From: a virus
Taxonomy: Duplodnaviria > Caudoviricetes
Direction: 5' to 3' (one strand)
DNA length: 55,599 nt
IMG/VR virus record: IMGVR_UViG_3300038974_000149
Location: 1 to 55,599 of that record
Shown: piece by piece, positions 11,891 through 32,937 of the stretch
Numbering within the stretch: the stretch's first letter is position 1
How the letters are laid out: each line of letters starts with the position of its first letter
The notes under the pieces: model-generated
Databases searched by the model: none
The model's input: only the letters and a program-made list of their open reading frames with translations
What the model was told of the DNA's origin: nothing
Program-made: the position numbers and the translations under genes

Positions 11891-11893
11891 GGA

Positions 11894-12505: not shown

Positions 12506-12532
12506 GCCATTCCTCCATGATTTGATAAGACC

Positions 12533-12561: not shown

Positions 12562-12562
12562 C

Positions 12563-12590: not shown

Positions 12591-12611
12591 TCTGTTTAGC
12601 GATTGTAGTTA

Positions 12612-15928: not shown

Positions 15929-17419
15929 TTATGATGATTTTTTATCTTCTGATGCTTGTCTTACCGCAAACTCTAATAAGATTTCTCTTTTATTTTTATC
16001 TGGCTCTTCTAAGACTAGCTGCAACGCATTATTTAAAATAGCTCCAAACAGGGGTCCTGGTTTCAGCCCAATTCCTATCAGATCAGTACCGTTTATAGCT
16101 AAATCTTTTACACTAAGAGGCTGTTTAGTTGTTTGAATTATTCTTATTCTCTTTAATAACCTCTTAAAAGAATACGTTATTAAGGGCTTTCCTTGTTTGG
16201 CCAGATTGGCTCTTCTATCTGCTAAACGAGCTCTCAAAAGAGATTTATAGTCGGGATTTGCCATAAATCTCTTTATTGCCTTATCGCTACTTTCTTCAGT
16301 ATGATAAAACATGTGATTTCTGATAATGTTATCGACCCGCTCTATGTCATCATTTTTAAACTTTAGCCTTTTTAAAATCTTTGTGGCCATTTTAGCGCCC
16401 ACTGTTTCGTGACCATGAAAAGTATAATCTTGAATTTCTTCGTCGAATTTCATAGTTTTAACCTTACCTACATCATGCAGTAGAAGCGCCAGTCTAAGAA
16501 TTGGATCTTTCTTCTTAATCGCATCGGCTGCTAAAAAATTATGCATCAAAATCGACTCAGCATGATGTCTATTCTGTTCAACTTCGAAGCCCTCATGAAG
16601 CTCAGGAAGAACTTCTTTCATGAATCCAGTCGTGAGCATGAGAGTCAACCCTTTGATGACGCTAAAAGATTCAAACATTTTCATGAGCTCAGCGCTAATG
16701 CGTTCGGGAGCAACCTCCTTGATGAGGCCAATGTTGCGCTGGATAGCCTTGAATGACTCTAGATCTAAGTTCAGATCTTTGCTATTGGCAAATCGAATAG
16801 CGCGTAGCATTCTCATAGGATCCTGACGAATCCTCTTGTCGGGATCACCAACAAACCTGAGTGTTCTAGATTCAATGTCGGAGATACCGCCGACAAAATC
16901 AAACACTTGCTTTGTCTCAGGATCATAAGCCAATGCATTCACAGTGAAGTCTCTACGACGGACATCTTCGCTAAGAGACGATGCAATAGATACTGACGTT
17001 TCCTTAGCAGATCGTGCTTCTTCGTCATCTATTCTGTAAGTTGCAACTTCGTGACCATCTACGATGTTAACTGCAAACTTTGCACCCACAGAACCAGGGA
17101 TTCCGAAGAGCTCATGAATCTGCTTTGGATGAGCCGAAGTCACAATGTCGAAATCCTTTGGAGGTTTACCCATCAGAGCATCTCGCACACATCCGCCAAT
17201 GACATACGATTCATGTCCATTATCTTTCAGCTTCTGAATGATTGCCAAAGTCTTGGGACTAAGGTCGATGTGAAAAGGATACTTTTTCATTTCTTTTTGT
17301 TTATCCTGAAGAGTCGGTTTGCGTTCTTCTGTTTCCTCATAAACGTATTTCTTCTTACCAGTTTTGGTAGAAGTTATTCTCAAGTATTTATGATTAGGTT
17401 TAGTTTGACCTTGCTTCAT
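15929..17419 (-). CDS. cca: class II tRNA nucleotidyltransferase (CCA-adding-like) with HD domain and N-terminal GHKY-type tag
   Basis: GGCVRD..KDFDI, EDVRRRDFTVNAL, DPMRMLRAIRF, ERISAEL, LLHDVGK, LAINGTDL..GLKPGP. Confidence 0.9.
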   Translation of the reverse strand: MKQGQTKPNHKYLRITSTKTGKKKYVYEETEERKPTLQDKQKEMKKYPFHIDLSPKTLAIIQKLKDNGHESYVIGGCVRDALMGKPPKDFDIVTSAHPKQIHELFGIPGSVGAKFAVNIVDGHEVATYRIDDEEARSAKETSVSIASSLSEDVRRRDFTVNALAYDPETKQVFDFVGGISDIESRTLRFVGDPDKRIRQDPMRMLRAIRFANSKDLNLDLESFKAIQRNIGLIKEVAPERISAELMKMFESFSVIKGLTLMLTTGFMKEVLPELHEGFEVEQNRHHAESILMHNFLAADAIKKKDPILRLALLLHDVGKVKTMKFDEEIQDYTFHGHETVGAKMATKILKRLKFKNDDIERVDNIIRNHMFYHTEESSDKAIKRFMANPDYKSLLRARLADRRANLAKQGKPLITYSFKRLLKRIRIIQTTKQPLSVKDLAINGTDLIGIGLKPGPLFGAILNNALQLVLEEPDKNKREILLEFAVRQASEDKKSS

Positions 17420-17449
17420 TATTTTATCCTATTTGAAAGAGATTGTACA

Positions 17450-17821
17450 TTACCAAATAACACCGCCCGATGAAGTTGCAGGAGCAGCAGGAGGAGGTTC
17501 ATCACCATAATCTATCACTGCCATAAATGATACACCTGTAGAAAAATCACTAGGGACTGAATCTACACCTAAGTCAGCTGTTTCAGTTGAAATGATTGAA
17601 CGAATAATGCAAGGTCTTTCTACTTCAGGAGCTTCAGAGTATTCTGTTGGATTTGCAGCATAAAGATAAGTTCCATCTGAGACTATTCCTAGACATTCTA
17701 TAGCGTGAAAAAATACTTCATCAAAAGGAGGGTCTGGAGGAGGCACCGTATAAACAGGATATAGATCAAAAGCGTCTGATGTTTTTTCTCCTGTTGTTTT
17801 ATCTACTTTGTATATAAGCAT
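17450..17821 (-). CDS. beta-propeller repeat fragment, possibly the C-terminal part of the upstream gene
   Basis: GIVSDGTYLY matches the repeats of 17978-19450; ends GGVIW. Confidence 0.55.
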   Translation of the reverse strand: MLIYKVDKTTGEKTSDAFDLYPVYTVPPPDPPFDEVFFHAIECLGIVSDGTYLYAANPTEYSEAPEVERPCIIRSIISTETADLGVDSVPSDFSTGVSFMAVIDYGDEPPPAAPATSSGGVIW

Positions 17822-17851
17822 TTCTTTGTTCCTTATATTACGAATTCATAT

Positions 17852-18153
17852 TCAGATATATAAAGATCATTACTGTCGCATGTTATCGCAGCAATCTTAA
17901 ATACATCTGGGGTTAGTTCGTCAACAAAAACTAGAGGTCCTGATCCTGAATATAGTTCGAATTTTAGAATAGTTTCTTCATCTGGGAGAATGTACAAATA
18001 GCTCAGATATATAAAGATCATTACTGTCGCATGTTATCGCAGCAATCTTAAATACATCTGGGGTTAGTTCGTCAACAAAAACTAGAGGTCCTGATCCTGA
18101 ATATAGTTCGAATTTTAGAATAGTTTCTTCATCTGAAAGAATGTACAAATAGC
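17852..18153. repeat. 151-bp tandem duplication (2 copies, 2 mismatches)
   Basis: 17852-18002 matches 18003-18153; it frameshifts the propeller gene. Confidence 0.95.
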
Positions 18154-19450
18154 TATCATCGCAGCAAGGATGCGTAATGTTGTTGAAACTAGTAGAGCCA
18201 TCATAAACAGTAAAGTCATCAACAAATTCCATCGTATTTGCATCAAGAACAAGAAGTCTATCTTGTGAATCTGACAAAGTAATATAAACATAAGTTCCAT
18301 CTGTTGCGCATCCAACACAAATGCCAATATCATCAAAATAAGTATATTCTGCAATCCAAATGGCGTCTTCTATTTCACTGTTTATCTCAAACTTAGCGAT
18401 TAAAGGATAAGAATCGCCATCATTATAATGATGAGCCACATAAAAATATGTTCCATCTGTACATATTCCAGCAGGCTGAAACAGCGATACGGTCTCATCA
18501 TAAGCATGCGAAAACTTAGAAACATATGATAGATCCGAAACTAGTCTTTCAACGATTCTTAGATTGTATTGATCGAGCATGTATATGCTAGAACCGCTGA
18601 TTATAAGCATGTATGGTTCGTCAAAATTGTCATCGCCAGATCCGGGAGAACCCGCAGATGAAACAAAAGACAAATCAGATTTCAAAAACTTTTTTATCTC
18701 ACATGAGTTAGGATCAAGAGTATATAAATATGTTTCATCAACTTCGAGTCCCGAGACTGCAATTCCGATCGCAGACATCCATGTTCCGTCAAGAGTTAGA
18801 TCTGAACAGTTTATTCGTCTTAGACGTTCATTATATGTTGTATCGTAAAAGTAAACGTGGTTTCCATCTGTTGATATGTGAAATATTCCATAAAAATCGA
18901 CCGAAGGAAAAGGATCACTTACAGCTACTCCTGTCATATCTGACTTCAATAGCTTAGAAAACTGGGGAGAAGTAAACAAATCCATGTTAGACAAGTATAA
19001 ATAATCATCATCTGATCGAATTGCATGAACACCAACATTATAGACTGTCGAATCTACTTCGTATGTAGTAGTTGAGTCAACAAATGAAAGATCGTCGACG
19101 TCGAGTCTTACAATGCTAGCAACATATTCGTCTTCATCTATGTTGCTGATATATAAATAATCGTCATCGGCATGCATAGAAACAAGATAGGGGAATGCCG
19201 ACACCAACCCTTGAACGGCGACATCTTGAACAGCACCGTAGTCAGACAAGAGAACTTTATATAGTCTTCCGCTATAATCATCGTCGTCTATGTAATAGAA
19301 GAGATGCGTAGAATTTATGGCCATCATAGTAATGTTTTTAGTAGAAGATTTTGTATATTCTGTCATTTCTCCAACAGTGGTCAGACCGGGAACACTTTTT
19401 TCGACTATCTTATTATTTTGAGTGTCGCATATGTAGATTGATTTAGCCAT
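17978..19450 (-). CDS. acidic beta-propeller (NHL/YWTD-like) repeat protein, likely virion-associated
   Basis: Repeated (G)I.(T/S)D(G/D).YLY units; GSPGSGDDNFDEP is NHL-like; 3' end disturbed by the duplication. Confidence 0.7.
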   Translation of the reverse strand: MAKSIYICDTQNNKIVEKSVPGLTTVGEMTEYTKSSTKNITMMAINSTHLFYYIDDDDYSGRLYKVLLSDYGAVQDVAVQGLVSAFPYLVSMHADDDYLYISNIDEDEYVASIVRLDVDDLSFVDSTTTYEVDSTVYNVGVHAIRSDDDYLYLSNMDLFTSPQFSKLLKSDMTGVAVSDPFPSVDFYGIFHISTDGNHVYFYDTTYNERLRRINCSDLTLDGTWMSAIGIAVSGLEVDETYLYTLDPNSCEIKKFLKSDLSFVSSAGSPGSGDDNFDEPYMLIISGSSIYMLDQYNLRIVERLVSDLSYVSKFSHAYDETVSLFQPAGICTDGTYFYVAHHYNDGDSYPLIAKFEINSEIEDAIWIAEYTYFDDIGICVGCATDGTYVYITLSDSQDRLLVLDANTMEFVDDFTVYDGSTSFNNITHPCCDDSYLYILSDEETILKFELYSGSGPLVFVDELTPDVFKIAAITCDSNDLYISELFVHSPR

Positions 19451-19459
19451 TTATTTCTC

Positions 19460-20635
19460 CTACCATATTATATTTCCATGAGTCGTTTCGGGAAAAGTGC
19501 TGGGCCAAGGAGCCGCAGAAACCTCATTGCTTGGATCAGATTCTAATCCTAATGCATCTAAATAAGCTACTACAATATAATAATAGTCTACGCCAACCAG
19601 CAAATCGGTATGCTCATAAGGGCTAATCACATCGGCTATCTCTGTGTCTGCCGTCGTTACACCAGGAAAGAAACTCCAATAAATGTTGAATGTTATCGCA
19701 TCTGGATTTATCTCGAGTAGACCGAAAGAATCATAAATAGGTTCGACGGCATTCCAGTTTCTCACAAGAACATTATCAATCCAGACAACCTCGCCAGCTG
19801 CTAAAGACGCAACTATCTCGAAGTTTCCAGAATAACTCCCAGTAGTTTGCATAGGAGTGCTCTGTTTCGCTAAAGATCCCGCAACGTAATAATCATATGT
19901 GTAGGCGGTCCAGTTCCAGTTTCTAAACTCCAGTTCATACCATATTCCCTGATATATATCTAGCCCTGTATCATGAACAGATCCATCATAATATCTTATG
20001 TCTGTATTTTGAATATAGGCATTCATTATTTTAGTGCCATTTCCGTGTCTAAAATAAGGGCCGCCAGTAGTATAATTCTTGAACATTCTACACTGTATTG
20101 CAATATTTTCACTTGCGGGACATAATATTCTCATGTCTGGAGCAACACCAGTATTTTCAAATCTAGCACTTCTAGTTCCTGAATAACAATACGTCGTTGA
20201 AATCGTTACATTCCCAGCAATGCTAAACCAATCACCATCTATTGGACCTCCATTGCTTCCTCGTTCAAAATCATCAAAAACAATAAATGTATCTGCACCG
20301 CTAGAAGCAGAAACAGCAGAATCATTTCCAAAATACATGTAAAATGTAGTAGATGTTGTTGCTATCGAATCAAGCTTTATCCAAACATCAGCTCTTTGAT
20401 TGGGATTTGTTCCCGAAATCAATTCAATCCAATATGGAAGAAGAGTTTCGCCGTCTGAGGTTGTAAATCTCAGGTCAGAAAAATCAGATTTGCAAGCAGA
20501 ATTGCAACTTATTTGTCTTCCTGACGTTGAAGTTGATTGACCGACATAAAGTTTCATCTGATAGTCTGTTAGGATTCCCGACGAATGACTTACAGTGAAC
20601 TCTTTTCTAAAATTCCAGCCCGATAACCATGCCAT
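19460..20635 (-). CDS. DUF2341-domain protein with lectin-like middle and C-terminal half of an FN3 domain
   Basis: MAWLSGW.FRK start, DFSDLRFT.SDG.TLLPYWIE, VWIK, YMYFGN, F.VFDDF; C-terminal YYYIVVA...ESDPSNEVSA. Confidence 0.8.
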   Translation of the reverse strand: MAWLSGWNFRKEFTVSHSSGILTDYQMKLYVGQSTSTSGRQISCNSACKSDFSDLRFTTSDGETLLPYWIELISGTNPNQRADVWIKLDSIATTSTTFYMYFGNDSAVSASSGADTFIVFDDFERGSNGGPIDGDWFSIAGNVTISTTYCYSGTRSARFENTGVAPDMRILCPASENIAIQCRMFKNYTTGGPYFRHGNGTKIMNAYIQNTDIRYYDGSVHDTGLDIYQGIWYELEFRNWNWTAYTYDYYVAGSLAKQSTPMQTTGSYSGNFEIVASLAAGEVVWIDNVLVRNWNAVEPIYDSFGLLEINPDAITFNIYWSFFPGVTTADTEIADVISPYEHTDLLVGVDYYYIVVAYLDALGLESDPSNEVSAAPWPSTFPETTHGNIIW

Positions 20636-21531
20636 TACGAATGAGTCCAAGAAATAATATTTTTCAATCTCTCAGGAGAAGCTGATGCAACAGGAGGATT
20701 TATCGATGAAGGAGAAGGGTCGGCGTCATATAATGTATAAACCGTTGTTCCAGCTAGAGCAAATGTTTTTCCGTTAGAGGTCCAAGCACCGGGATAAATA
20801 CCGGCCGAGGGGATGTTTGTTGTAAGAATATCCCAAGCTGCAACTCCATACCGTTTTCTATATACTGTGCTATTTACTCTAGTATCCGACATATATAAAT
20901 CACCATTAGGATCTTTTCTTATTCTACTATAAGACATTGCACCAGCAGGAGAAAAAGCACATTCAGTAAATACCTTCGTTGTTCTATTGAAAGAAAATAT
21001 TTTCCCTCCAGTATATGGAGCCGAACCATTATATGAAGTACACCATATTATATTATCATCTGCTGGGTCTACATGAATACCTACCATTGAATAAGGAGGA
21101 TTCACCACTGGACTATTGGCTTGCTTTACAAAAGCAGATGTATCTGTAGAACTCTTCGACCATATTCCTCCCGCCGTGGTGAGCGCGTACAACATTCCGT
21201 CATTAGTTATTGTTATACCGTGGCAGTTAGGCAGCGTCGAACCAGAAATGTATGCAGAAACATTTGTTGTTCCATCAATCTTTATAACACCATTAGCCCA
21301 AGTAATAATAAACTTATCATTATTAGATTCTTTCAGGCACATATCGGCATTATAATCACCCGTATTAGATTTTCCAATAAAACGAACGAAATCTACCTGT
21401 CCTGGATTCATACAAAATATTAGACCATTGGAACTATACGCAGAAGCAAAAACGACATCGCTGTTATCTACTAACAGTGTGTTGCAGGACTGCACAAGCG
21501 TGTCATACTCATAAAAATCAAAATCAGCCAC
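20635..21531 (-). CDS. beta-propeller-like virion protein
   Basis: Beta-rich repeats (GITITNDGMLY, IHVDP, KDPNGDLY). Confidence 0.6.
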   Translation of the reverse strand: MADFDFYEYDTLVQSCNTLLVDNSDVVFASAYSSNGLIFCMNPGQVDFVRFIGKSNTGDYNADMCLKESNNDKFIITWANGVIKIDGTTNVSAYISGSTLPNCHGITITNDGMLYALTTAGGIWSKSSTDTSAFVKQANSPVVNPPYSMVGIHVDPADDNIIWCTSYNGSAPYTGGKIFSFNRTTKVFTECAFSPAGAMSYSRIRKDPNGDLYMSDTRVNSTVYRKRYGVAAWDILTTNIPSAGIYPGAWTSNGKTFALAGTTVYTLYDADPSPSSINPPVASASPERLKNIISWTHS

Positions 21532-21896
21532 TAGAACTCCTTTAAGCCAGAACCGCTATAAAGAAAAGCAGGTTTACCCTTTTGTTTCGCTTGAGCGAGC
21601 ATGTTTTTGGTTCCTTTACTTTCATTGATGTTATAGTGAAAACCTACAACAACATCGGGCTTACCTTCTTTGAGCATTTGAGAGTTACGAATAGGACCAG
21701 CAGCTCGGCCGAACTTTTCCCAGTTAGCCGGATACTTTTCAACAGCGATGTTCATTTCTTCACCGACCTCACGAGCAAGAGAATCAGCACTGGGAGCTTC
21801 GCCTTCAATGATTACATTAGGCTGAAACTTTTCCACAACGCGTTTTATAGCAACTTTGTCGTACCAACGCCGGTCACCGCAGATGAGTAATCTCAT
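21531..21896 (-). CDS. YspA-like SLOG-superfamily (DUF2493) protein
   Basis: LLICGDR, IIEGEA.SAD, ANWEKFGRAAGPIRNSQML, SKGTKNM. Confidence 0.85.
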   Translation of the reverse strand: MRLLICGDRRWYDKVAIKRVVEKFQPNVIIEGEAPSADSLAREVGEEMNIAVEKYPANWEKFGRAAGPIRNSQMLKEGKPDVVVGFHYNINESKGTKNMLAQAKQKGKPAFLYSGSGLKEF

Positions 21897-21924
21897 TTAG
21901 CCCTCCTTTATTCGTAAAGTTTTA

Positions 21925-22089
21925 TTATAAATCTTCTCGCCAAGATAGTACATCATTATTTTCGTGCTTATTGAACTTAGTTACTGGCTTCTTGCTTCCA
22001 AAGCGCTTGAAGTGCTTCTTTTTAGTTTTCGTAGAACGTTGAATTTTTTCAATCATTTTCTCATCTTCTTTTTCGTTGAAGAAATCCAT
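21925..22089 (-). CDS. small basic protein (not in ORF track)
   Basis: 54 aa MDFFNEKEDEKMIEKIQRSTKTKKKHFKRF...; AGGAG RBS. Confidence 0.55.
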   Translation of the reverse strand: MDFFNEKEDEKMIEKIQRSTKTKKKHFKRFGSKKPVTKFNKHENNDVLSWREDL

Positions 22090-22099
22090 AGTGTTCTCC

Positions 22100-22597: not shown

Positions 22598-22599
22598 GT

Positions 22600-23115
22600 C
22601 TACCTCGATTTAGAGATTGATAGTGTGCTTTTTATGATGTTTCCCTTGTTTATCTTCATTACTTTAGATTTTCTTATTATAGCTACATTGATTGATTTAT
22701 CTTTTTTATAGTACATTGAAATAGCTTTAGCAAGTCTACGAGCTGTTCTGCTTGTATAGCTAAGAAATAAATCGTCCTTATTTAGCTGGTTGTAAATCAT
22801 GACAGCATAAAGAGCCTTCGTTTCAGGCTTTACAGCCTTCGATTTCTCTATAGCCATACTAAAGCCTTCAATAAAGAAATCATTAGGATGATGAACTTTA
22901 TAGTCTACAAGCTGTTCATAGAGAGTCTTATACTGGTCTAATGAGAGGTTCTTTCCCTTGTAGAGGATAGTATAAAGAGCCTTGAAGATAGCAAAGTTAC
23001 GAAAGTATCCAACAGCTTTGAGAATACTAGTTATGTTTTCCTCATCGGAAGCTAAAACTATGTCGGGATGTAGAAATCGAAGACTTCTAGATTTTATCAG
23101 TTGTTTAGCTATCAT
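22600..23115 (-). CDS. basic hypothetical protein rich in xxK[S/A] sites
   Basis: LIKS, ILKA, IFKA, IEKS, LAKA, IRKS, IIKS, ISKS. Confidence 0.7.
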   Translation of the reverse strand: MIAKQLIKSRSLRFLHPDIVLASDEENITSILKAVGYFRNFAIFKALYTILYKGKNLSLDQYKTLYEQLVDYKVHHPNDFFIEGFSMAIEKSKAVKPETKALYAVMIYNQLNKDDLFLSYTSRTARRLAKAISMYYKKDKSINVAIIRKSKVMKINKGNIIKSTLSISKSR

Positions 23116-25694
23116 TAGTCTTCTTCGTAAGCCTCAGCTTGTCTATCTAGCTCGTCATCACGAATCTTTTGAACTTCCTCAGCCGACAATGTTCGAGGCT
23201 TTATAGATTCCTTAGGAGTAAGTAGACCTGGAACCACAACATACTCTCGTTCATTTGAATAAGCCCAATAATCTTCATTTTCCCACGAATTGGCTAACAG
23301 AATAGCTTTTGCAGGAACCTCGGCTTCTGAGATAACTTTTCCAAATCGTTCAGCGACTATCTTGTCTTCTGTCCACGATGACGCTGCAGACTTTATTTCA
23401 CTATTTCCATTTCCTCTATAAAGAACTCGAGGAGCATCTTGAATGGTGCGCTGAGTATTTTCATACACTCGACTGACTGCATCTGATAATGCTTCTCTAA
23501 CTTTGACGTTTCTCGAGGTTGTTACTCTATTAGATGCCACGTGATAGTTAACGTAAGTTCCTCTGTCTATTCCATTTTCTTCTACAAACTGTTCGATTGC
23601 ATTACTCATAGTAGAGCCATGAGATGCATTTGACCACAGTTTTATGAAAGCAGCTTCTTTAGACACAATGGGAACATCTTTATTGAGAAGAAGCATTGTG
23701 TTCATGGCGGCTTCAAATGTATTAGTCTGCGATGGTGGCAGATAAGAAAGAGACTGCAATGAATCTTCGTCAGAATAAATGTCTACACCGTCTTTAGCTC
23801 TTGTTAGTAGTTCCACGAAGTGCTGATAAGAACCCTTGTTTACATCGTGGCCAGATAGAAATCCACCAATAGCAAAAATAGAATCACGAAAATACTTGTC
23901 CAATCCATGCATGTCGATGTATGCAAATGCTTTTTCGGTCGAATCATAGAAAGAGAGCGAGTTGTTTACATTCATTGATAAAAATGCGAATCCACTATTC
24001 TTAGCGATGTTAGAAAGATGATTTTTCATTATGTTTTCGTCGATAGCTTCTAAGTCTCTTACTTTATCTACGACTTTACCGACCGCATGAGAATAAGTTC
24101 TCATTGCACCATCGTAGATTCCCTTTTCTTTCACGTTCCACTGATTTGCGAATGCTTTCATGTCGTAAGAAACTGCTGAAGCTCTCATTGAGTCGCTGAT
24201 GAATAAACCAAAGCTTTCTATCATCTTGCTTGCGAAATGTATTTCTTCGGCGTCTTTCAGGCTTTCAACTGCAGGGATTAGATGGTCTAAGTAGAATCTA
24301 AATCCGTTCTTTACGAATCTGTCTCGAAGTTTCATCATGGTGTCGACTGATTTATAGATTTCATCCATCATAAAGTCGATTCGAGGGTCTGAACCCTGAA
24401 GCCATGAGTAGTCGCCAACTTCATCGTCGAATCGTTTTATTGCATCTTTTATTTGTTCAACTGTTTCGTTGAACTTGTCGGCAATCTTTATGTTTCCCGC
24501 ATTTGCACTGATTTTTTTCGCCATGTCGACTTGAAAAATCTTTTCAACCTTACCGCTGTTTAAAAATGCATTTATTGCGACAGCTTTTTCATAGACACCT
24601 GAAAGACCTGCTATAGCTTTCCTTACATCATTCTGAGCTACTGGGCTGAGTTTCTTGTCGACGACCGCAATGTCTTCATTTCCACTCTGACTGAAAGTTG
24701 TTATGTTCAGAACCCTAAGTGTTTTATTGACATTATTGATAGTAGGACCATCTACATCAGAACCAAAAATCTGTTGCCCTACTCCTATTCCTGTTTGAGT
24801 GGCTCTGCTTTCAAGCTTTGAAATCCATTGCTCGGCTGTTATTCCTTTTGTAAAGTCGGGGATTCCTTCGGGAACTCGTCTAAACTCCTGGAAGGGCAAC
24901 TGCTTTTTCGGAGCCTTTTCTTCTGAGGGACCTTGCTTCTTTCCAATGAGAGCAGCGAGCTGTTCCATGAGCCCGCCCTTGCCCTTCTTTTCATCCTCTT
25001 TCTTGGGACCCTTTTCTTTAGGTTCCGTGTAGATGTATTTGTATTGACCGGGCGAACCCTCACGACGTAGATACTTATGACCGGGCTTTTCCTCACCCTT
25101 CTTTGATTTGAACAAATCATCTTCCTCTGATTTATTCACATAACCCCAGCAAACTAGAAGCTTAGAAATAGCAGACATCAAATAAGAGTCCATGTCATGT
25201 CTTGGCTCACGAATCATTCTAACTAGCTCGTGAATGGGAACCCAGATGTTCGTAGATTTCTTTTCAAAAATAGAACCATCAGTTGTAGGTTTTCCCTGAT
25301 GAAGTCCCGTCACATCTACGATGCATAGTACGTCTGCGTTTTTATAGAAGCCACCAGCTATGATTTCACCTATCTCCGAGAAATAACGAGGTTCTGCAAG
25401 TATTCCGGCTTCCTCGAGAAGTTCTCTACGAGCAGCTCCTCTCCATCCATCATCATCGGCATCCATTCTACCAGTTATGATTGACAACATTGTGTCGTGA
25501 ATGGGAGTATACTCATCTCTAATAAGAACTTCTCTGCCATTTGTGCCCATTCGATAAGGGATTATTGCAACACCTTTACGATTATCTTCATACACGTACC
25601 CTGTCTTGTCTTCCTGCATAATAGTTTTATGAGGATTATTTAGCAGGGTCTTGTCTTTTCTTACGAATGTTATACCCTTAAGATTTATCAACAT
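23115..25694 (-). CDS. multidomain protein: Nudix hydrolase + GHKY tag + helical region + ADP-ribosyltransferase-like domain
   Basis: Nudix box GRMDADDDGWRGAARRELLEEAGI; C-terminal LYRG...SSWT...EREY R-S-E pattern; likely start MLINLK at 25694. Confidence 0.75.
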   Translation of the reverse strand: MLINLKGITFVRKDKTLLNNPHKTIMQEDKTGYVYEDNRKGVAIIPYRMGTNGREVLIRDEYTPIHDTMLSIITGRMDADDDGWRGAARRELLEEAGILAEPRYFSEIGEIIAGGFYKNADVLCIVDVTGLHQGKPTTDGSIFEKKSTNIWVPIHELVRMIREPRHDMDSYLMSAISKLLVCWGYVNKSEEDDLFKSKKGEEKPGHKYLRREGSPGQYKYIYTEPKEKGPKKEDEKKGKGGLMEQLAALIGKKQGPSEEKAPKKQLPFQEFRRVPEGIPDFTKGITAEQWISKLESRATQTGIGVGQQIFGSDVDGPTINNVNKTLRVLNITTFSQSGNEDIAVVDKKLSPVAQNDVRKAIAGLSGVYEKAVAINAFLNSGKVEKIFQVDMAKKISANAGNIKIADKFNETVEQIKDAIKRFDDEVGDYSWLQGSDPRIDFMMDEIYKSVDTMMKLRDRFVKNGFRFYLDHLIPAVESLKDAEEIHFASKMIESFGLFISDSMRASAVSYDMKAFANQWNVKEKGIYDGAMRTYSHAVGKVVDKVRDLEAIDENIMKNHLSNIAKNSGFAFLSMNVNNSLSFYDSTEKAFAYIDMHGLDKYFRDSIFAIGGFLSGHDVNKGSYQHFVELLTRAKDGVDIYSDEDSLQSLSYLPPSQTNTFEAAMNTMLLLNKDVPIVSKEAAFIKLWSNASHGSTMSNAIEQFVEENGIDRGTYVNYHVASNRVTTSRNVKVREALSDAVSRVYENTQRTIQDAPRVLYRGNGNSEIKSAASSWTEDKIVAERFGKVISEAEVPAKAILLANSWENEDYWAYSNEREYVVVPGLLTPKESIKPRTLSAEEVQKIRDDELDRQAEAYEED

Positions 25695-25902
25695 CAGTTC
25701 TTTCCTTACCTGTGTCTTTTTCATCGGCATCGCCATCTGGCCATTCAATTTTCACATACTCATTCATGTCTTTATAGCCAAACTTCTTTTTAGGCTGCTC
25801 TTCTTTTTCTCTAGACTCTGAGAATAGAGTTGAAGTGCTTACATCGGCACGCTGCCGAGAATCCATCTGCTTGAATCTTTTCCAGTCATAGTATTTAGTC
25901 AT
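25678..25902 (-). CDS. small charged hypothetical protein
   Basis: Likely start MTKYYDW overlapping the upstream stop. Confidence 0.55.
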   Translation of the reverse strand: MTKYYDWKRFKQMDSRQRADVSTSTLFSESREKEEQPKKKFGYKDMNEYVKIEWPDGDADEKDTGKERTDVDKS

Positions 25903-26341
25903 TTTTTCTTTTCTTCCATTCTTTCCAGCTTTGATACGACTTATAGAATGCTTTCGACTTGTTAGTTGCACGAAGGAGCTTTTTCTTTTTAGATTCCTGC
26001 TTCAGATTTTCCTTGCCTTGTCTTTCCATTTCATCTAGTCGTTTATAATAGTCGGGAAGCTCGGCTAGATGATCCATGGCAATGTCGGCAGCCGCCACTT
26101 TCTTTTCGTCTTCATCCATTTCTTTATGCTTTCCGACATGTTCCATTTCAACATCGATGCCAGATTCAAGTTCCTTTTGGTCAACATCTTTGTAATCTAG
26201 ATCGTCTCCTTCGCCACCATCGATAGGATTAGGTCTTTTTGACCGAGTTATTTCAGCACCGCCTGGTAGGTACGCATCTCGATTTTTTATAGGATTCGTT
26301 GTCGGATACTTCTTTGTTATCTCAACTGGTTTTTCAACTTT
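25895..26341 (-). CDS. DUF5661-like domain; probably the frameshifted 3' part of 26317-27627
   Basis: Frame open from 26341 with no start codon before 26146, yet it encodes GGEGD...KELESGIDVEMEH...IAMDHLAELPDYYKRL. Confidence 0.6.
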   Translation of the reverse strand, partial: KVEKPVEITKKYPTTNPIKNRDAYLPGGAEITRSKRPNPIDGGEGDDLDYKDVDQKELESGIDVEMEHVGKHKEMDEDEKKVAAADIAMDHLAELPDYYKRLDEMERQGKENLKQESKKKKLLRATNKSKAFYKSYQSWKEWKKRKND

Positions 26342-27627
26342 TTATCTAGTTCAACCCGAATCTCGTTTATGTTTTTAGCATCTTTTATATCTTTTTGCAG
26401 AGATAAGAGCTGAGATGATTTTTTAGCACTAGGGTCTGGATCATTGTCTAGAGCTGCTTTGCGAGCTCTTGCCATTGTTTCATCTATTTCTCTATTGCGA
26501 GCAGCATCTCTAATGCGAGTGTCTATTTTGCTTCTTCCTGGAACTTCAAGAGGGTCTTTTCCTTTAGCTTCCTGTTGCTTTATCCACAAATCTTTGAAAG
26601 CACCTTTGCTTATTTTCATCGACTTTTTATTGAATCCTCTAGCCCATTTATCAAAACCAGGATGTATTTCACCAGCATCGTCATGAGCATTTACATCTGA
26701 AGTATCAGATTCGCCTGCTCTGAGATTAGGACCTTCTGGCTTTCTAGTAGTTCTACGAATCTTTTCATGAACTTCTTCGGTCGTCATCGGTCTACGAGGA
26801 GGACGATCCGCAGAAGGTTCACCCGACATAGCCTTACCAACATGTTTCTTATTGAAAGTTGTAACCTTTAGTGAGTTGTCTTCTTCGTTTTCATCGTTGG
26901 TTCCAGTAAGAATAGCCACCAGAGGCTTGAAACAAGGAGCCAGCGGTTGATTTTGAGTATACTGAAGAACCAGATTCTTTATGCTTTTATCTGCTCTTTT
27001 AGCTTTTACGTCTCTACCTTCTTCAGTAAGATGAACAAAAACTTTCGAAGCCTTCTTATTAGGGTCAATAGGCTGATTGAATGTCACAGTTGCACCGGGA
27101 TACTTTTTAGTGTATTCGCCGATTGGTTTTTCAGACTTCACCATGACTTTTCTGCCAGCTATGATGAGAGATTTCTTAGCAAGTCTCTTTCTAACCTTAG
27201 CAGGAACATGGTCTGTTCCCTTATACTGAGTGTCTGGACCGTGCTCGCCCTTGAAGTTCCCTGGATGATACGAAGGGACGCCTTGAGGAGCCTGATTGCC
27301 TACAGTTTGAAACGCTTGAGCATAGGCCTCGCCAGTTCCGGGGGTCGAAGGAAAGTCTTGCTGCTTTGTGTCTCTAAGCCTAAATGGGTCAGTCGCAGCA
27401 GAAGGAAAATCGAGCTTTTCACCTTGCTCGTCACTCTTTTTACCAGCAGTTCTGAACACTAGCGGAGTGTAGTGCTCAGCCTTGACGAGCTCAGGAGACA
27501 CCTCACACTTGTGATAAATGTAGTTAGCCAAAGCCCAGCGAGTCTTGCCACCTTTAGTCTTACCAGCAGCTTCTTTAGCTTTATCCCACTTAGCTTCGTC
27601 TTCTGGTGTTTTTACGAATCCTGGCAT
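26317..27627 (-). CDS. low-complexity Lys/Pro-rich protein, putative internal head protein
   Basis: 436 aa; many xxK[S/A] sites; N-terminal MPGFVKTPEDEAKWDKAK...WALANYIY. Confidence 0.65.
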   Translation of the reverse strand: MPGFVKTPEDEAKWDKAKEAAGKTKGGKTRWALANYIYHKCEVSPELVKAEHYTPLVFRTAGKKSDEQGEKLDFPSAATDPFRLRDTKQQDFPSTPGTGEAYAQAFQTVGNQAPQGVPSYHPGNFKGEHGPDTQYKGTDHVPAKVRKRLAKKSLIIAGRKVMVKSEKPIGEYTKKYPGATVTFNQPIDPNKKASKVFVHLTEEGRDVKAKRADKSIKNLVLQYTQNQPLAPCFKPLVAILTGTNDENEEDNSLKVTTFNKKHVGKAMSGEPSADRPPRRPMTTEEVHEKIRRTTRKPEGPNLRAGESDTSDVNAHDDAGEIHPGFDKWARGFNKKSMKISKGAFKDLWIKQQEAKGKDPLEVPGRSKIDTRIRDAARNREIDETMARARKAALDNDPDPSAKKSSQLLSLQKDIKDAKNINEIRVELDKKLKNQLR

Positions 27628-27743
27628 GATTGTTCTCCTTCAACTGATTCAACTTCCTGACTTTTATTTGTAGTTTCTTCTTTTTCCGCGATTGCCGTAT
27701 AGTGAATTCCTTGCTCAAGCCCGCCTAAAATCTCGTATTGCAT
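27612..27743 (-). CDS. small acidic protein (not in ORF track)
   Basis: 43 aa MQYEILGGLEQGIHYTAIAEKEET...; fills the gap. Confidence 0.4.
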   Translation of the reverse strand: MQYEILGGLEQGIHYTAIAEKEETTNKSQEVESVEGEQSCQDS

Positions 27744-27749
27744 GTTCTA

Positions 27750-30209
27750 TTACTTCCTATTCTTTCCAAAATAACTTTCGAAATGATCATAGACTTCTTT
27801 TTCTTTCTTTTCAAGCAGCTCAGGTGTAATGAAATACCTTGAGAATGCTTCTGCAAAATGTTCTTCTGCGCTTATTGACGCATACGTGCTGACCATGTAC
27901 ATCTTTATTGAATCTTGAAGCATTGTTTCTTTATCTTGACCTTTAGCGCCAGAAAGCTCTACTTCTTGCTCTGCCTTTTCTCTGATTTCCTTGTCTATTT
28001 TTCCGAATGAATCGACAAACTTTATTGAATCTTTTGTCTGTTTTTCCAGAGCCTTCTGAGCTTCTTTCTTTTCCTTTTTCATCGGATCGTCTTTTGCTAT
28101 TTCATCACGTGAAGTGAGGGGTTGCTTATGTTTGAATCTAAGAGCACCATAGAAAAATGCATGCCCTACTTCGTGAAGCATAACAGCCTTTTTATCGATT
28201 TCCGACATTCCACTTGGAAAGTTTGAAATAGAAAATGCCATTTTTCCTTTAGAGACATTGAATGAGCCAGAAGCATTAGTAAAAGCAGGAGTATTTCGCA
28301 GTTTGTCTGGAGCCTCTAATGAATCTAAGAATACCTCATGATCATCTGTTATTCTAATGTAGTTGCAGGCCGCGTTGATGTTTTCAAAGTGAACATCATC
28401 GATTCCTTTCAATGAATCGACTAACAACGTTTCGTAGTTTTCATCAGATGAATCAATGAGTGAAATAAATGAGTCTCGTCTATCCGAAGGAATCTCTTCC
28501 TCTTTCTTTTTACGAGGATTAGTTTCTTTATAGATGTATCGAACATTTCCAGACTCTGTGAGCTCTTTCCTGATGTACTTCGCGCTCGCCTTTTTACGTT
28601 CAGTAGTTTGAACGGCTTTTTCTAAATCTGAAATAAATGATTTCGCATACCCTCTTGAAGCTAGTTCTCTATCAAGAGCATCGAGTTCGTTATTTCCCCT
28701 TACGAAGTTCATCATAAACTTTTCGTCGAGCATTGTATAGACTTTACCCATGTCGCGACGAAATCTAAGAGTACCTATTTTTAGGCCATTCTTTGCGATT
28801 ATGTCTACATCTGAGAAAATATTGGTTTCTTTTCCCATTATTTTTCTTTTACCCATACTCCTCATCTGAATAGAAAAGTTTCCTGGTGTAAGCTGCTTTT
28901 TCAGTTGCTTTTTCAGTTTACTTTCGCGCACGACATAGAGCTCATTATCATTAGTCTTCTGATTATAGAATGGCATCACCATTACCATTTCAGAAACCGA
29001 CGAATCAGAAAAAGCTCCTGAAAAAACCTCATACAAATCATCTGTAAATCCTTTTGCGAAAACATTATCATTCAATGCGTCAAAAATAACTTGTTCTACT
29101 TTTCTAGAACGATAAGTGTTTATTGCACTTGCGATTTCCTTAGTCAGCTCTCTAAACTCACGATAAATAGCAATCTGGTCTTTTGTAAGAGTTTCAGCTT
29201 CTGGCATCTTTTTCTTTATGTACTTCTGATAAGTCGTTGCACCCTGTTTCTTTAGTTCGTCTATCCTTTGCTGCTGTTTAACGAAATGTTTTTTTGCCAA
29301 TGACTGAGCTTCTACCAATGAGTCGTCCCATGCTCTCTTCATTTTAACTGCATGACTTCGCACAACATGAGCGGTTTTTGAATCTCCAGATTGAAGAAGT
29401 CTATCGGCAACTGAAGTATAGTTTTCTATCGCTGTTCCCATACTATTGTTCTTTAGAGTAATGGGCGACGTCCCCTGAAAAGCTTTTGATGAAATACCAA
29501 TCGCACCTGGAATTCCCGTGTTCAAGTCGATTAGGAGCAATCCCAAATCATTATTTTTATCAACTTGTCGGGCATCCATAATCATCAAATCAGAAACAAT
29601 GTCTTTTCTCTGAATGTGAGCCGTAGAAACCAAACGAAGGTCTTCGAAATCAATGTTGTACATTTCACCAGATGTTTGTCGAAAATAATCCCACATCTTT
29701 TTATTATCTCCGACCAATCTAGCAAGATGAAAGTCATTTTTAGTTTCTTTTAGAGCAAATAATCTATCAGTCAGGTCTTTTAGAATCTTTTGATGATGAC
29801 TGTCTGTGTATGAGTCGAGATAATAGCGTACTTTCATCACAGCATCATCAATGTCCTGGACTTGAGGCAACGCTGCAAAGATTTCCCATGTTCTACCATA
29901 GAAAGCCGTAAAGTTTGTCTCTATGTCTTTTTTATACGTCTTTACAGCAAAATCGCTTTTCGCAAAACTCAAGAAGTCTTCTATCGATGATTTTTCCTCT
30001 TTTACAAAAGACTCATCCTGGCTGAATCGTTTATTTTCTTCATCTGTAAAATCTTGGCTGCTTGTTCCTTGTTTAGGATTATGATAGAAATAACGGTATC
30101 CACCTCCAGGTAGAGGAACACGATAGAGATACTTATGGCCAGGTTTTTCCCAGCCCTTTTTAGATTTCAGCAAGTCAAATAGAGCCGCAACGCTTATTTT
30201 ACGTAGCAT
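27750..30209 (-). CDS. polyvalent-type protein: GHKY tag + putative PD-(D/E)xK-like nuclease + second tag + zincin metallopeptidase
   Basis: SDLMI...GISSK (nuclease-like, tentative); LHEVGH...YAS..AEEHFAEAF..Y is an anthrax-LF-type zincin pattern. Confidence 0.7.
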   Translation of the reverse strand: MLRKISVAALFDLLKSKKGWEKPGHKYLYRVPLPGGGYRYFYHNPKQGTSSQDFTDEENKRFSQDESFVKEEKSSIEDFLSFAKSDFAVKTYKKDIETNFTAFYGRTWEIFAALPQVQDIDDAVMKVRYYLDSYTDSHHQKILKDLTDRLFALKETKNDFHLARLVGDNKKMWDYFRQTSGEMYNIDFEDLRLVSTAHIQRKDIVSDLMIMDARQVDKNNDLGLLLIDLNTGIPGAIGISSKAFQGTSPITLKNNSMGTAIENYTSVADRLLQSGDSKTAHVVRSHAVKMKRAWDDSLVEAQSLAKKHFVKQQQRIDELKKQGATTYQKYIKKKMPEAETLTKDQIAIYREFRELTKEIASAINTYRSRKVEQVIFDALNDNVFAKGFTDDLYEVFSGAFSDSSVSEMVMVMPFYNQKTNDNELYVVRESKLKKQLKKQLTPGNFSIQMRSMGKRKIMGKETNIFSDVDIIAKNGLKIGTLRFRRDMGKVYTMLDEKFMMNFVRGNNELDALDRELASRGYAKSFISDLEKAVQTTERKKASAKYIRKELTESGNVRYIYKETNPRKKKEEEIPSDRRDSFISLIDSSDENYETLLVDSLKGIDDVHFENINAACNYIRITDDHEVFLDSLEAPDKLRNTPAFTNASGSFNVSKGKMAFSISNFPSGMSEIDKKAVMLHEVGHAFFYGALRFKHKQPLTSRDEIAKDDPMKKEKKEAQKALEKQTKDSIKFVDSFGKIDKEIREKAEQEVELSGAKGQDKETMLQDSIKMYMVSTYASISAEEHFAEAFSRYFITPELLEKKEKEVYDHFESYFGKNRK

Positions 30210-30732
30210 TCTGTTCTCCAGTTGAAGCCTGTATTTTTTGATTGTACTCTGTTGTGCGATTCAAAGCCATGTTGAACATTTTCTTGTATTCTTTAGCAGC
30301 GACAGCAGCGGGAAGATACTCAGAGACCTTAGTTCCAAGATTAGTCGTCATCAAATCGAGTTCTGAAATGATAGATTCGGGAAGAACCTCTTCACCTCTG
30401 TCGAGCATCGCCTTTGCGGCACCGTTGTAATCAGATGAATCGAAGTGTTTTGAGTATCGTCGATACTTTTTATCTTGAGAGACAGCATTTTGAAAATCTT
30501 CAACCATTTGAAGCATGTCTTTATCTGACGGTGCCTTATTTCCTTTAGCTTCGTCATAGATGTATCGATACGTACCATCACCCGCATTTTCGCGCTTGAT
30601 GTATTTGTGCCCTTTCCTTTCGAGCCCTAACTGCGAGTTGGAGCTCTTTGGCTTTACTTGTTTTCCCTTGGGAACCCCGTAAGTATTAGCCTTTCGTAGA
30701 AAAGTTACATTATTTATAAGTATCTTAGACAT
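30199..30732 (-). CDS. GHKY-tag protein with unknown C-terminal domain
   Basis: GLERKGHKYIKRENAGDGTYRYIYDE. Confidence 0.75.
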   Translation of the reverse strand: MSKILINNVTFLRKANTYGVPKGKQVKPKSSNSQLGLERKGHKYIKRENAGDGTYRYIYDEAKGNKAPSDKDMLQMVEDFQNAVSQDKKYRRYSKHFDSSDYNGAAKAMLDRGEEVLPESIISELDLMTTNLGTKVSEYLPAAVAAKEYKKMFNMALNRTTEYNQKIQASTGEQNAT

Positions 30733-31075
30733 GTTTATCTTCCTTGTAGATTAGAGCATTTGAGATTTTCGCCAACATAAATATCTTCTCGATGTATTCT
30801 GCAACTGTTTTGCTTTTCTTCATTACACCAGTAAGATGAGCCATTTTCAAGCTATTTCGTTCCTTCTGATTCAGCTCGTGCTCGTAATCGAAAACACTTA
30901 CTACTCGAGCAAACGACAAAAATGCTTTTTTATCCATTATCTTTAGTCCAAAAAGTCCTCTATAGACAATCTGCTCGTTGAGATTCAAGTCGATGCAGAA
31001 CGCCATTCTGCCCTTGAACAGAATAGAGTTGAAAATGATAATCTTACCGCACTTTAGTTCGTCGATTATTGGCAT
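30725..31075 (-). CDS. hypothetical protein
   Basis: 116-aa ORF coupled to both neighbours. Confidence 0.6.
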   Translation of the reverse strand: MPIIDELKCGKIIIFNSILFKGRMAFCIDLNLNEQIVYRGLFGLKIMDKKAFLSFARVVSVFDYEHELNQKERNSLKMAHLTGVMKKSKTVAEYIEKIFMLAKISNALIYKEDKHV

Positions 31076-32937
31076 TAGTTTGGAAACCTCGACTGTCGTT
31101 TTCGTTGCTGCTTTACTTCATCATCTAGTTCTGTAACTTTTCCTTTATCTGAAGCCACACTACTGAGTCCTCCAGCTGCGGGTTGGCCACAAGAAACCGA
31201 ACCGAAGTCCTTGAATAATGTCATCTCAGTGTAAGAACGTTCGAGTTCGTTGAGCTTCTCTCCCATCCAGGCATCTGTCTTTAGAGCTTTGATTGTCAGC
31301 TGCATGAGTTTCTTGTTGTAGCCTTCAATGAACTTATCGTCTTTTGTTATTCTAGCGCTCATTAGATAGTTCACTGCGATTCTGAAATCCTCTTTTGTCA
31401 CTTTAGATGGATTGATTATTCCCGAACGAACAGCATTGTCGTATTCATAACTGAAGTTGTTTATCGTTTGGGCTTTTTCTTCTGTCCCGTACTTGTCCCA
31501 CTGAGACTCCGCAAGAATCTTGTCGGCAAAATCTAACAAGAAAGAATCAATGACATCGCTTTCTTTTAGTATGTCGGCTCTATACTTGTCGGCAACGCTG
31601 AAAAGTTCTTCAGACTTTATCTTTTCGTATTTGAATAGATTCCAATCTTCATTATTTAGTATTGCATCTCCAACAGCTTTATAAGATAAAGACCTTAGCC
31701 CTTTTAGTTTCCTAAAATAAGATTCCGTTTTGGCTTTTATCATTGAACCGTCTTTGAATCGAATGACAAAGCCTTCTAAATCTTCTTTCGCATTTTTCTG
31801 AAAATCTGAAAGCTCGTCAAAACTGTGAAACTCATGAGTTTTCGGAGATTCTATTCCAAAACTATCAGCTAGTCTTTGAGTTTCAAGAAAATCTTGCATC
31901 TTAGAGGTTTTCAGGTCTCTTACGCCGTGAAGAAACAACGCGCTTTTCTTTCCATAGCCAACTACAACTCTATACTTAGGGTCAATCAGTTCCAAAACCA
32001 TAGACCTGCCGTCTTTTAGATAGTCTTTCATTCTGTCGTATTGACCACCCTTGCGCACAATCTTTTCAGCTGTGTCTAGAAATCCTTTTTCATCTGTTTC
32101 TGGATCGAGCTGAGCCCTGGTTCCAAAACGAATCTTATCTGTATACTTGTCGTAGAATGCCTGAATAAGAATACCACCAACTTTTTCTGAAGCAAGAAAT
32201 GGCTGTTCTGACATTTTCTTTGCCAGATTTGCAAGATTTCCGTCTATGTATTCATCCATGTTGAAGAACTTCTCGTATGGAAATGAAACCATCTCACCTG
32301 TTTCTTTATCGAAAGTTATTCCACGAACCATTCTCATCTGCATAGACCACTTAGGTCGTTTACTCTCAGCAATCTCTCTATTTATAGACTTGAAGAAAAA
32401 GTTATCTGCATAGTTTAGAGTAATGTATTTACCATCTTTTGAAAATGAAACATCAACATAGTTTGATAGTTTGTCGCCTGATTCGGATTCGAAGTCTTTA
32501 TTGGTCAATCCAAAGAATCTTGAAAGCACTTCTCTACCAGATGAACTAACATACTCTTTTAGCTCGGCTCGGCTGCCTATTCCTCGTTCTCTTATAAATG
32601 CGACGAAGTCTTGAAGCTTTTGTTTTCCTTCGTTCAGTGCCTTTGCTCTATCTTCTTCAGAAAGCCCAAAGAATCTATCAGATAGTGTAGTCGCAACAGT
32701 AGAATGCTTAGGCTTTTTTTCTTCCGGCTTGAACTGGACCTTTGGAGCAACTTCAGGAACATACTCTATCTTTTCTGGTCGGCGTCGAACAGGAATCACT
32801 TTTTTCTGACGAGGTTCTGACTCCTTATAAACATACACTCGTTTTCCCGTCTTAGGGTCGATGTATTTACGTATGTACTTGTGACCAGGTTTTTCCTCGC
32901 CAATCATATCTTTTGTTAGAACTATGTTCATTGACAT
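31075..32937 (-). CDS. T4 Rnl1-like RNA ligase with N-terminal GHKY tag
   Basis: RGITFD...FPYEKFFN, motif I EKVGG (sic), GTR, ELI.P..RVVV.Y, EGFVIRF, IKAKT..Y. Confidence 0.8.
   Translation of the reverse strand: MSMNIVLTKDMIGEEKPGHKYIRKYIDPKTGKRVYVYKESEPRQKKVIPVRRRPEKIEYVPEVAPKVQFKPEEKKPKHSTVATTLSDRFFGLSEEDRAKALNEGKQKLQDFVAFIRERGIGSRAELKEYVSSSGREVLSRFFGLTNKDFESESGDKLSNYVDVSFSKDGKYITLNYADNFFFKSINREIAESKRPKWSMQMRMVRGITFDKETGEMVSFPYEKFFNMDEYIDGNLANLAKKMSEQPFLASEKVGGILIQAFYDKYTDKIRFGTRAQLDPETDEKGFLDTAEKIVRKGGQYDRMKDYLKDGRSMVLELIDPKYRVVVGYGKKSALFLHGVRDLKTSKMQDFLETQRLADSFGIESPKTHEFHSFDELSDFQKNAKEDLEGFVIRFKDGSMIKAKTESYFRKLKGLRSLSYKAVGDAILNNEDWNLFKYEKIKSEELFSVADKYRADILKESDVIDSFLLDFADKILAESQWDKYGTEEKAQTINNFSYEYDNAVRSGIINPSKVTKEDFRIAVNYLMSARITKDDKFIEGYNKKLMQLTIKALKTDAWMGEKLNELERSYTEMTLFKDFGSVSCGQPAAGGLSSVASDKGKVTELDDEVKQQRKRQSRFPN

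Follow-up and report, generated by a model that had tools for sequence, protein, structure and literature searches.

Five otherwise unrelated proteins encoded in a 55.6-kb fragment of a phage genome share a motif of about 30 residues, which is predicted to form a β-hairpin and is a candidate address for loading proteins into the phage head. The fragment corresponds to IMG/VR record IMGVR_UViG_3300038974_000149 and is estimated to be 34% complete; its whole length is referred to here as the window, and its minus strand holds every sizeable gene. The motif (G-x-E-K/R-P-G-H-K-Y-I/L-R-R … G-x-Y-R-Y-I-Y-x-E) is present in six copies, all encoded within the translations of five minus-strand open reading frames (ORFs) in the 15.9-32.9 kb region. 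These specify a CCA-adding enzyme, an 877-residue Nudix protein, an 819-residue protein, a 177-residue protein (p177) and an Rnl1-type RNA ligase. An earlier note on this DNA had reported the six copies and proposed that they load cargo into the virion. We confirm the observation, which extends far beyond the window. Support for the interpretation is partial and comes from the gene context, from the company of polyvalent (virion-delivered effector) proteins, from the absence of the tag from orthologues and cellular relatives, and from the predicted portable form of the hairpin.

We built a hidden Markov model (HMM) from the six copies and used its envelopes as hairpin coordinates, each of which lies within a few bases of the place given in the earlier note. 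Recovery of the copies by a model built from all of them is trivial. In a leave-one-out analysis, a model of five copies was searched against 1139 six-frame pieces of the window plus the left-out peptide; the latter was recovered at 25.4-41.7 bits (E-values of 4e-7 to 3e-12), and the best non-member piece reached 10.0-12.4 bits. Copy 1 spans approximately residues 2-32 of the CCA enzyme (17324-17416, minus strand, as are all copies; 52.2 bits with the full model and 31.4 bits when left out). Copy 2 is internal to the 877-residue protein, after its Nudix domain (25014-25103; 49.0 and 41.7 bits). The 819-residue protein has two, copy 3 in its N-terminal part (30069-30161; 56.3 and 28.8 bits) and copy 4 directly before its peptidase domain (28515-28607; 51.9 and 25.4 bits). 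Copies 5 and 6 are located in p177 (30541-30633; 55.9 and 28.8 bits) and in the Rnl1-type ligase (32812-32907; 52.6 and 27.8 bits), respectively. The residues K, Y, G, Y and Y are invariant in 6/6 copies (alignment A1). Copy 4 is a variant without the H and the PG, and this variant is kept in its aligned homologues (consensus of alignment A6). The HMM revealed no seventh copy among the six-frame pieces of the window. A partial match at 6104-6334 (12.7 bits) was discarded because the only resemblance is 'SHKYIRR', in a frame that looks spurious.

Compared as DNA, the six copies show a mean column identity of 63%, with differences at synonymous sites, and their mean pairwise protein identity is 38%. 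On these grounds, the copies are old and held by selection on the protein, rather than recent duplicates. The synonymous-site differences also rule out the idea that the copies are recombination junctions conserved as DNA.

The note's description of the copies as lying N-terminal to separate domains of otherwise unrelated proteins holds. The CCA-adding tRNA nucleotidyltransferase (496 residues; 15929-17419, minus strand), recognized by Pfam, phrog_2244 and NCBIfam, starts with the hairpin leader; its Pfam domains (PolyA_pol at residues 72-188, PolyA_pol_RNAbd, HD and tRNA_NucTran2_2) and the NCBIfam CCA models, which align from residue 50-71, all follow it. Likewise, the ligase (620 residues; 31075-32937, minus strand; phrog_562), which is of the T4 RnlA/gp63-like type, has an N-terminal hairpin and a K/P-rich linker, and the Pfam match to RNA_lig_T4_1 covers residues 204-412, after the leader. 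As the note had claimed, relatives of both enzymes lack the leader. Cellular CCA enzymes are without the hairpin, the NCBIfam models starting after it. The Rnl1 orthologue (545 residues) of a complete related genome, G005, has no hairpin and lacks the first ~80-100 residues, and among the 25 listed of 950 cultured-phage Rnl1 matches, 0 start before query residue 113. Because all three groups do without the tag, it should be dispensable for catalysis.

The 877-residue protein (23115-25748, minus strand) consists of a Nudix domain (residues 57-178; Pfam NUDIX, 1.5e-7), the hairpin, a region of ~500 residues and a C-terminal ADP-ribosyltransferase (ART) part (residues ~762-843). The PDB entries closest to the Nudix part are ADP-ribose pyrophosphatases, and none of the PDB sequence matches covers the ART part, for which the Pfam DRAT match at residues 790-841 is weak (16.7 bits vs a cut-off of 25). 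The R-S-ExE signature of ADP-ribosyltransferases comprises an Arg in strand 1, an S-x-S-type motif and the catalytic E-x-E motif. With YRG, SSW and E-x-E invariant in 8/8 homologues, the C-terminus has the motifs of this type and is probably an R-S-ExE-type ADP-ribosyltransferase.

The 819-residue protein (27750-30209, minus strand) is composed of a hairpin, a region of unknown fold of ~480 residues, the second hairpin and a zincin metallopeptidase domain (residues ~575-819; 27753-28487, minus strand), which is supported by its HExxH motif, an AlphaFold2 model and Foldseek. The HExxH motif is invariant in 25 homologues, there is a weak Pfam match to Peptidase_M90, and the top Foldseek matches are the Pro-Pro endopeptidases PPEP-1/3 and a lethal-factor-type catalytic domain (probability ~1, E-value 0.04, template modelling score by target 0.55-0.63). 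In G005, the zincin is a stand-alone protein of 273 residues with the second hairpin only, which suggests that the lineage of the window has acquired the N-terminal 540 residues as an addition. The ADP-ribosylating and protease proteins that the earlier note proposed as cargo do carry the tag. No tagged nuclease was found, and the HNH gene at 15345-15884 is untagged. The fifth protein, p177 (30199-30732, minus strand), has a leader that is conserved in an alignment of 19 homologues, the hairpin and a helical bundle; it matches no Pfam, PHROG or NCBIfam family, and a fold search against the PDB gave nothing at E≤0.001.

Two AlphaFold2 models were made, of p177 (20 homologues) and of the C-terminal 300 residues of the 819-residue protein (25 homologues). 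In the p177 model, the leader (residues 1-37) is disordered and is followed by strands at residues 43-49 and 55-61, with a predicted local distance difference test (pLDDT) value of about 70, a short linker and a helical bundle (residues 70-176; pLDDT of about 90). In the second model, strands at residues 26-31 and 37-41 (pLDDT 56-64) are flanked by linkers with values <50, and the domain that follows is predicted at pLDDT >90. Over both models, the hairpin has pLDDT values of 56-72 and does not pack against the neighbouring domain. Since linkers of low confidence lie on both sides of the strands and a domain of high confidence follows, the motif is predicted to be an autonomous basic, aromatic β-hairpin on flexible tethers, outside the neighbouring folds, in agreement with the portable hairpin that the note had envisaged on unrelated enzymes. 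Residues 30-66 of p177 gave no usable feature match in the ESM Atlas; a viral Zeta-toxin cluster came first in the structural rows, but such rows mean little for a piece so short.

When the six-copy profile was searched against 1.84 billion cluster representatives, 228 proteins were found at E≤1e-3, of which 12 at E≤1e-10. Many of the 228 have a length of 1000-3135 residues and contain as many as four matched stretches. With a word-indexed search, run as a second approach, 261 proteins were obtained, almost all being unnamed metagenomic sequences. An exact DNA pattern for GHKYIRRE had 18 matches in IMG/VR, 17 of which are part of a full hairpin; in prokaryote genomes (596 Gb) it had 26, of which 3 are part of the full hairpin. 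The matches listed with a named source come from metagenome-assembled genomes (MAGs) labelled Aenigmatarchaeota, Ignavibacteriota and Omnitrophota. One of these loci (L045) is a 627-residue ORF on a 13.6-kb contig in the Aenigmatarchaeota-labelled MAG, with an N-terminal hairpin nearly identical to that of P0089, another tagged Rnl1; the contig is possibly a mis-binned phage or virus contig, or stems from an archaeal virus.

Copy number and position were analyzed in 240 collected proteins with 391 distinct hairpin instances. Around the anchor residue K, the core is highly conserved (H 84%, Y 98%, I/L/V 90%, R/K 100%). At least two copies are present in 153/240 proteins, with a median spacing of 198 residues, and 54/240 proteins have at least 1000 residues. 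The first hairpin lies at most 60 residues from the N-terminus in 168 proteins and beyond residue 60 in the other 72. Copies within one protein are 56% alike, vs 43% across proteins, a difference that local duplication would explain as well as co-evolution with a lineage-specific partner, and that favours none of the readings considered here. The charged linker that the note saw after each copy is visible by eye for those of the window; in the larger set of 240 proteins, K (12.5 vs 10.4%) and P (5.4 vs 4.3%) are only a little more frequent in the 25 residues that follow the hairpin.

That functionally diverse effectors share one phage-restricted tag would fit an adaptor that docks them, after entry or synthesis, on a single abundant host structure such as the ribosome, RNA polymerase or the membrane. 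The core residues are the same in sources from very different host phyla and in a divergent subtype linked to Gln_amidase, which is hard to reconcile with one host target, and the gene contexts described below point to head genes instead. We consider a host-factor adaptor very improbable.

The domains joined to the hairpin were determined by a Pfam scan of 140 of the best 150 profile matches, the 10 shorter than 130 residues being excluded. Most frequent were Gln_amidase (15 proteins) and ddrB-ParB (12), followed by SNF2, LPD1 and DUF5661 (7 each), ART-PolyVal and 2H phosphoesterase (5 each), InPase, RelA_SpoT and NUDIX (3 each), Kinase-PolyVal and Phage_Mu_F (2 each), and MuF_C and Zeta_toxin (1 each). 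Judging from these matches, the partners make up the repertoire of phage-type polyvalent proteins, including the head-associated families MuF, MuF_C, DarA_C and ddrB-ParB. ArdC, relaxase and MPTase-PolyVal are not among the matches listed for the 140 proteins, and weak peptidase matches occur in three of them (Peptidase_M90 in P0004 and P0079, Peptidase_M91 in P0020). A CCA enzyme is placed between two hairpins inside a 1566-residue polyvalent protein (P0068).

Many of the partners (CCA enzyme, Rnl1, ParB nucleases, SNF2, methylase, 2H) act on nucleic acids, and the hairpin displays H, K, R/K and three Tyr over its two strands. It could accordingly be a clamp that binds DNA or RNA non-specifically and gathers the enzymes joined to it on their substrates or the phage genome, independently of the capsid. 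However, the hairpin is also found on Gln_amidase (15 proteins), Zeta toxin, kinases and a peptidase, the other RNA-repair enzymes of the window (RtcB, an Rnl2-type ligase and a phosphoesterase) are untagged, and polyvalent domains of the conjugative-element type are not among the partners listed. A clamp function is therefore unlikely in our view.

The hairpins are located between the listed Pfam domains and never within one (for example in P0002, P0005, P0019, P0035, P0082 and P0107). This arrangement is what would be expected of a processing mark, in which the hairpin and the semi-conserved G-x-E-K/R would be a docking or cleavage signal for a protease, either the tagged zincin of the cluster or the prohead protease, that separates polyvalent proteins into their units and trims the short leaders off the stand-alone proteins. 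The upstream positions are partly conserved in the 391 instances (G at -7 in 46%, E at -5 in 37%, K/R at -4 in 59%), residue -5 is E in 4/6 window copies, the zincin bears its own conserved hairpin variant, and the p177 leader before the hairpin is conserved. Processing of polyvalent proteins by their peptidases has also been proposed in the text of Iyer et al. (2017, J Bacteriol; PMC5512222). On the other hand, it is the hairpin itself that is best conserved and not an extended cleavable stretch, E(-5) is absent in 63% of the instances, and separation would be needless for single-domain proteins. Moreover, MPTase-PolyVal is present in 0/140 of the scanned matches and the matches to other peptidases are weak. 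G005 has a prohead protease of the S78 (HK97) type (Peptidase_S78, 25 bits vs a cut-off of 21), whereas gp21 of T4 is a Glu-specific protease; cleavage of the T4-like, Glu-specific kind at the hairpin is weakened by this protease type and by the low frequency of E(-5). We regard a processing mark as improbable; the hairpin could nevertheless be both mark and address, just as the targeting leader of T4 is itself cleaved.

In the catalogues of known families, no model of Pfam, NCBIfam or PHROGs covers the hairpin at threshold. None of the Pfam LPD models matches it. With the six peptides, Pfam at E≤10 returned only SSSPR-51, which was judged a chance match. Positions ~39-80 of the Pfam model WDGH (PF25311) align to the Gln_amidase-linked subtype (HKYIAKV…GKYRYFYD) in 6 proteins, in all of them below the curated cut-off (17-26.6 bits vs 27; best in P0024); WDGH has no match in the window at E≤1 nor in the six peptides at E≤10. 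Among cultured phages, a DNA search with 27750-32937 gave no match, and no phage with both a virion proteome and the hairpin was found among those searched. Literature searches on the GHKY phage motif, on WDGH and on virion mass spectrometry of polyvalent proteins returned nothing on the hairpin. The catalogue of globular domains LPD1-40 in PMC5512222 does not mention it either in the passages covered. The class of element is known, and the hairpin appears to be an uncatalogued case of it.

Gene contexts were analyzed in five IMG/VR records (G001-G005), selected by length from 16 pattern-hit contigs, in which the HMM gave six, one, thirteen, three and five hairpin matches, respectively. In four of the five, the hairpin genes lie at most about 9 kb from the portal gene, the exception being the window's own lineage (G005). 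Hairpin ORFs of 657, 435, about 1432 and 1750 residues run into the portal gene of G003, downstream of the terminase gene, and the hairpin ORFs of this record include Zeta toxin, DUF5661, InPase, SAM lyase and DarA_C domains. A 989-residue hairpin ORF adjoins the portal gene of G001, which also encodes a 2912-residue polyvalent protein near the capsid gene, and the hairpins of G004 and G002 are located about 4-9 kb from the portal gene, on the same strand. The complete, 104-kb genome G003 is the densest case, its 13 matches falling in five ORFs (loci L070-L071; 39.9-52.8 kb and 64.7-66.0 kb), four of which lie between the terminase and portal genes; one of its polyvalent proteins joins a DRAT-like ART, SAM lyase, DarA_C and InPase.

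G005 (163 kb, with terminal repeats, 100% complete) is syntenic with the window, which matches its 97.5-160 kb. Its portal gene is located at 63.8-65.2 kb, and a same-strand run leads from the prohead protease gene (68.4 kb) through capsid, baseplate and tail, fibre and glycosyltransferase genes to the hairpin cluster at 122-138 kb. In the window, the cluster similarly lies 3' of the tail-fibre genes on the same strand. The tag is present in G005 on p171, on the stand-alone peptidase, on the CCA enzyme and on the Nudix-ART protein, and is absent from Rnl1. The capsid protein of G005 is about 40% identical to capsid proteins of SPO1-like Herelleviridae. A complex prediction for an acidic 320-residue putative scaffold of G005 with residues 1-60 of p171 scored 0.00; made without controls, it is evidence neither way.

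The reading that we favour, tentatively and at somewhat less than an even chance, is that the hairpin acts as an address, one per module, which directs loading into the head and delivery. It covers most of the facts: a tethered module, placed before effector units, confined to phages and polyvalent proteins, encoded near head genes, dispensable for catalysis and biased towards N-termini. According to this proposal, the hairpin marks the modules of phage-type polyvalent proteins and would bind either to the packaged DNA or to one of the components inside the procapsid (scaffold, capsid shell or portal). Each module would thereby be loaded into the head, would remain there even after proteolytic separation of the polypeptide, and would exit with the DNA at infection. 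The window phage would have its polyvalent modules as separate genes, each with its own hairpin (CCA enzyme, Rnl1, Nudix plus ART, zincin and helical protein). We infer binding, loading and injection by the hairpin from the sequence analyses, and rate the reading no higher because binding and virion presence are deduced steps, because the repeats and the co-occurrence with MuF are not required by it, and because the G005 cluster is far from the head genes.

Several observations weigh against an address function. The earlier note had placed the genes in the structural block, which is true of their position after the tail fibres on the same strand; the G005 cluster, however, is separated from the portal and head genes by about 57 kb. 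Neither promoter-like sites (49 vs 47.4 +/- 6.3 in shuffles) nor terminator-like sites (10 vs 12.4 +/- 3.9) are in excess in the window, and they do not bear on the note's statement that the genes are away from the early promoters. Several copies per polypeptide exceed the needs of simple targeting, and the MuF-bearing proteins P0019 and P0144 also carry hairpins. The 14 ART-PolyVal loci fetched with P0005 contain 0 hairpins, from which it follows that polyvalent proteins manage without it in many phages. The HMM found the hairpin in 0/5 Herelleviridae-like or Bacteroides phage records (YungSlug, phi18, Brochothrix A9, Staph1N and Bacteroides DAC20), the same search being positive in 5/5 IMG/VR records, and the HMM of alignment A2 had 0 matches in the whole P1 genome (NC_005856) at E≤1. 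In tblastn searches of cultured phages, p177 had no match, the 32-residue hairpin peptide had none at E≤10 (the low-complexity filter may mask this query), and P0024 matched through its amidase domain only.

A bolder version, which we consider rather doubtful, is that the hairpin is a universal, transferable 'zip code' by which a wide range of uncultured large phages would turn any enzyme into a head-packaged and injected effector. The window would then be the unbundled form with one tagged gene per module, including tRNA-repair enzymes that would be pre-delivered against host anticodon nucleases before phage gene expression.

If the hairpin is an address tag, it would explain the use of such ordinary enzymes, a CCA-adding enzyme and an RNA ligase, as counter-defence cargo that acts early. 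Single tagged genes, taken as a set, and polyvalent proteins would be two states of one system, and the hairpin would offer a portable means of loading proteins into phage heads. To our knowledge, loading signals are known only for T4 internal proteins and P1 DarB. If it is a processing mark or a nucleic-acid clamp instead, it would still be an uncatalogued and widespread phage module. In either case it is a sequence-defined handle, present in at least 228 protein clusters and several complete phage genomes, that could be searched for, deleted or joined to reporters and could serve to identify candidate injected proteins in metagenomes.

The tagged region of the window is flanked by collagen-like tail fibres (38.6-51.8 kb), four GIY-YIG homing endonucleases and glycosyltransferases; all window genes of this paragraph are on the minus strand. 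Three very large collagen-repeat fibre proteins are encoded at 38591-40555, 42292-46113 and 48001-51765, two of them with CBM_5_12 carbohydrate-binding modules. The four GIY-YIG/NUMOD3 homing-endonuclease genes (46097-46771, 52091-52780, 52854-53411 and 53825-54508) are located among the tail-fibre genes, and a single related ORF in G005 (23104-23748) is the top match for 3/4 of them. Two genes within the tagged cluster have no hairpin: that of a YAcAr/SLOG-family protein (21531-21896; 61% identity to its G005 counterpart) and a DUF5661-family gene (25898-27627), of a family that is frequently met with the hairpin in other proteins (7/140 scanned). The latter gene is split into a 436-residue ORF ending at 26317 and an overlapping open piece of 148 residues (25898-26341) with the DUF5661-like part, where G005 has one 586-residue ORF with DUF5661; the split could be a frameshift, a sequencing error or genuine. 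A second RNA-repair set, untagged, is present in the 7.4-13.6 kb region (7436-13595) and comprises an Rnl2-type ligase (7436-8386), a calcineurin-like phosphoesterase (8999-9793), RtcB (10264-11367) and DUF932 (12612-13595). Together with the tagged CCA enzyme and Rnl1, it makes up an unusually full tRNA-repair kit for a phage.

Besides the Pfam WDGH domain, three known systems come close to the hairpin. The capsid-targeting sequence of T4, as described in the part of PMC3012670 considered here, is a short shared N-terminal element by which diverse proteins are loaded into the prohead and injected. The hairpin resembles it in being a short element shared by diverse proteins and often N-terminal, the virion loading of the hairpin proteins being putative. 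The T4 element has about 10 residues, is strictly N-terminal and is cut off by the gp21 protease. The hairpin, in contrast, has ~30 residues, is often internal and repeated, and the prohead protease of the window's relative is of the S78 type; two of the six window copies are internal, and 72/240 first copies lie beyond residue 60, so that an extreme N-terminal leader of the T4 type is not what is seen. Alt of T4 is an R-S-ExE-class ADP-ribosyltransferase, which the putative one of the window resembles.

For the 250-kDa polyvalent protein DarB of P1, PMC9024508 reports, in the part considered, that the first 30 residues suffice to load a reporter. The P1 search given above detected no sequence relationship of this N-terminus to the hairpin. 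The darB gene adjoins the portal gene, like the hairpin ORFs in G001 and G003, although darB and the portal gene of P1 are divergent.

Polyvalent proteins were defined in PMC5512222, which, in the passages covered, predicts capsid packaging for the phage-type ones and gives RelA/SpoT, 2H, InPase and DdrB-ParB as phage-only domains. The phage-type proteins have the same domain repertoire and head-gene contexts as described here, and the hairpin is found inside them, in proteins of up to 3135 residues. The Nudix, ART and zincin domains of the window belong to this repertoire, as do CCA in P0068 and Rnl1 in P0089, and the location is late or structural, the window and G005 clusters following the fibre genes and hairpin ORFs of G001 and G003 abutting the portal gene. 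The window Nudix-ART and peptidase proteins fit the polyvalent type; two or more effector domains are present in the 877-residue protein and arguably in the 819-residue protein, whereas the CCA enzyme, Rnl1 and p177 are single-module proteins. Compared with polyvalent proteins, the modules of the window are therefore mostly separate genes, each of which has its own hairpin.

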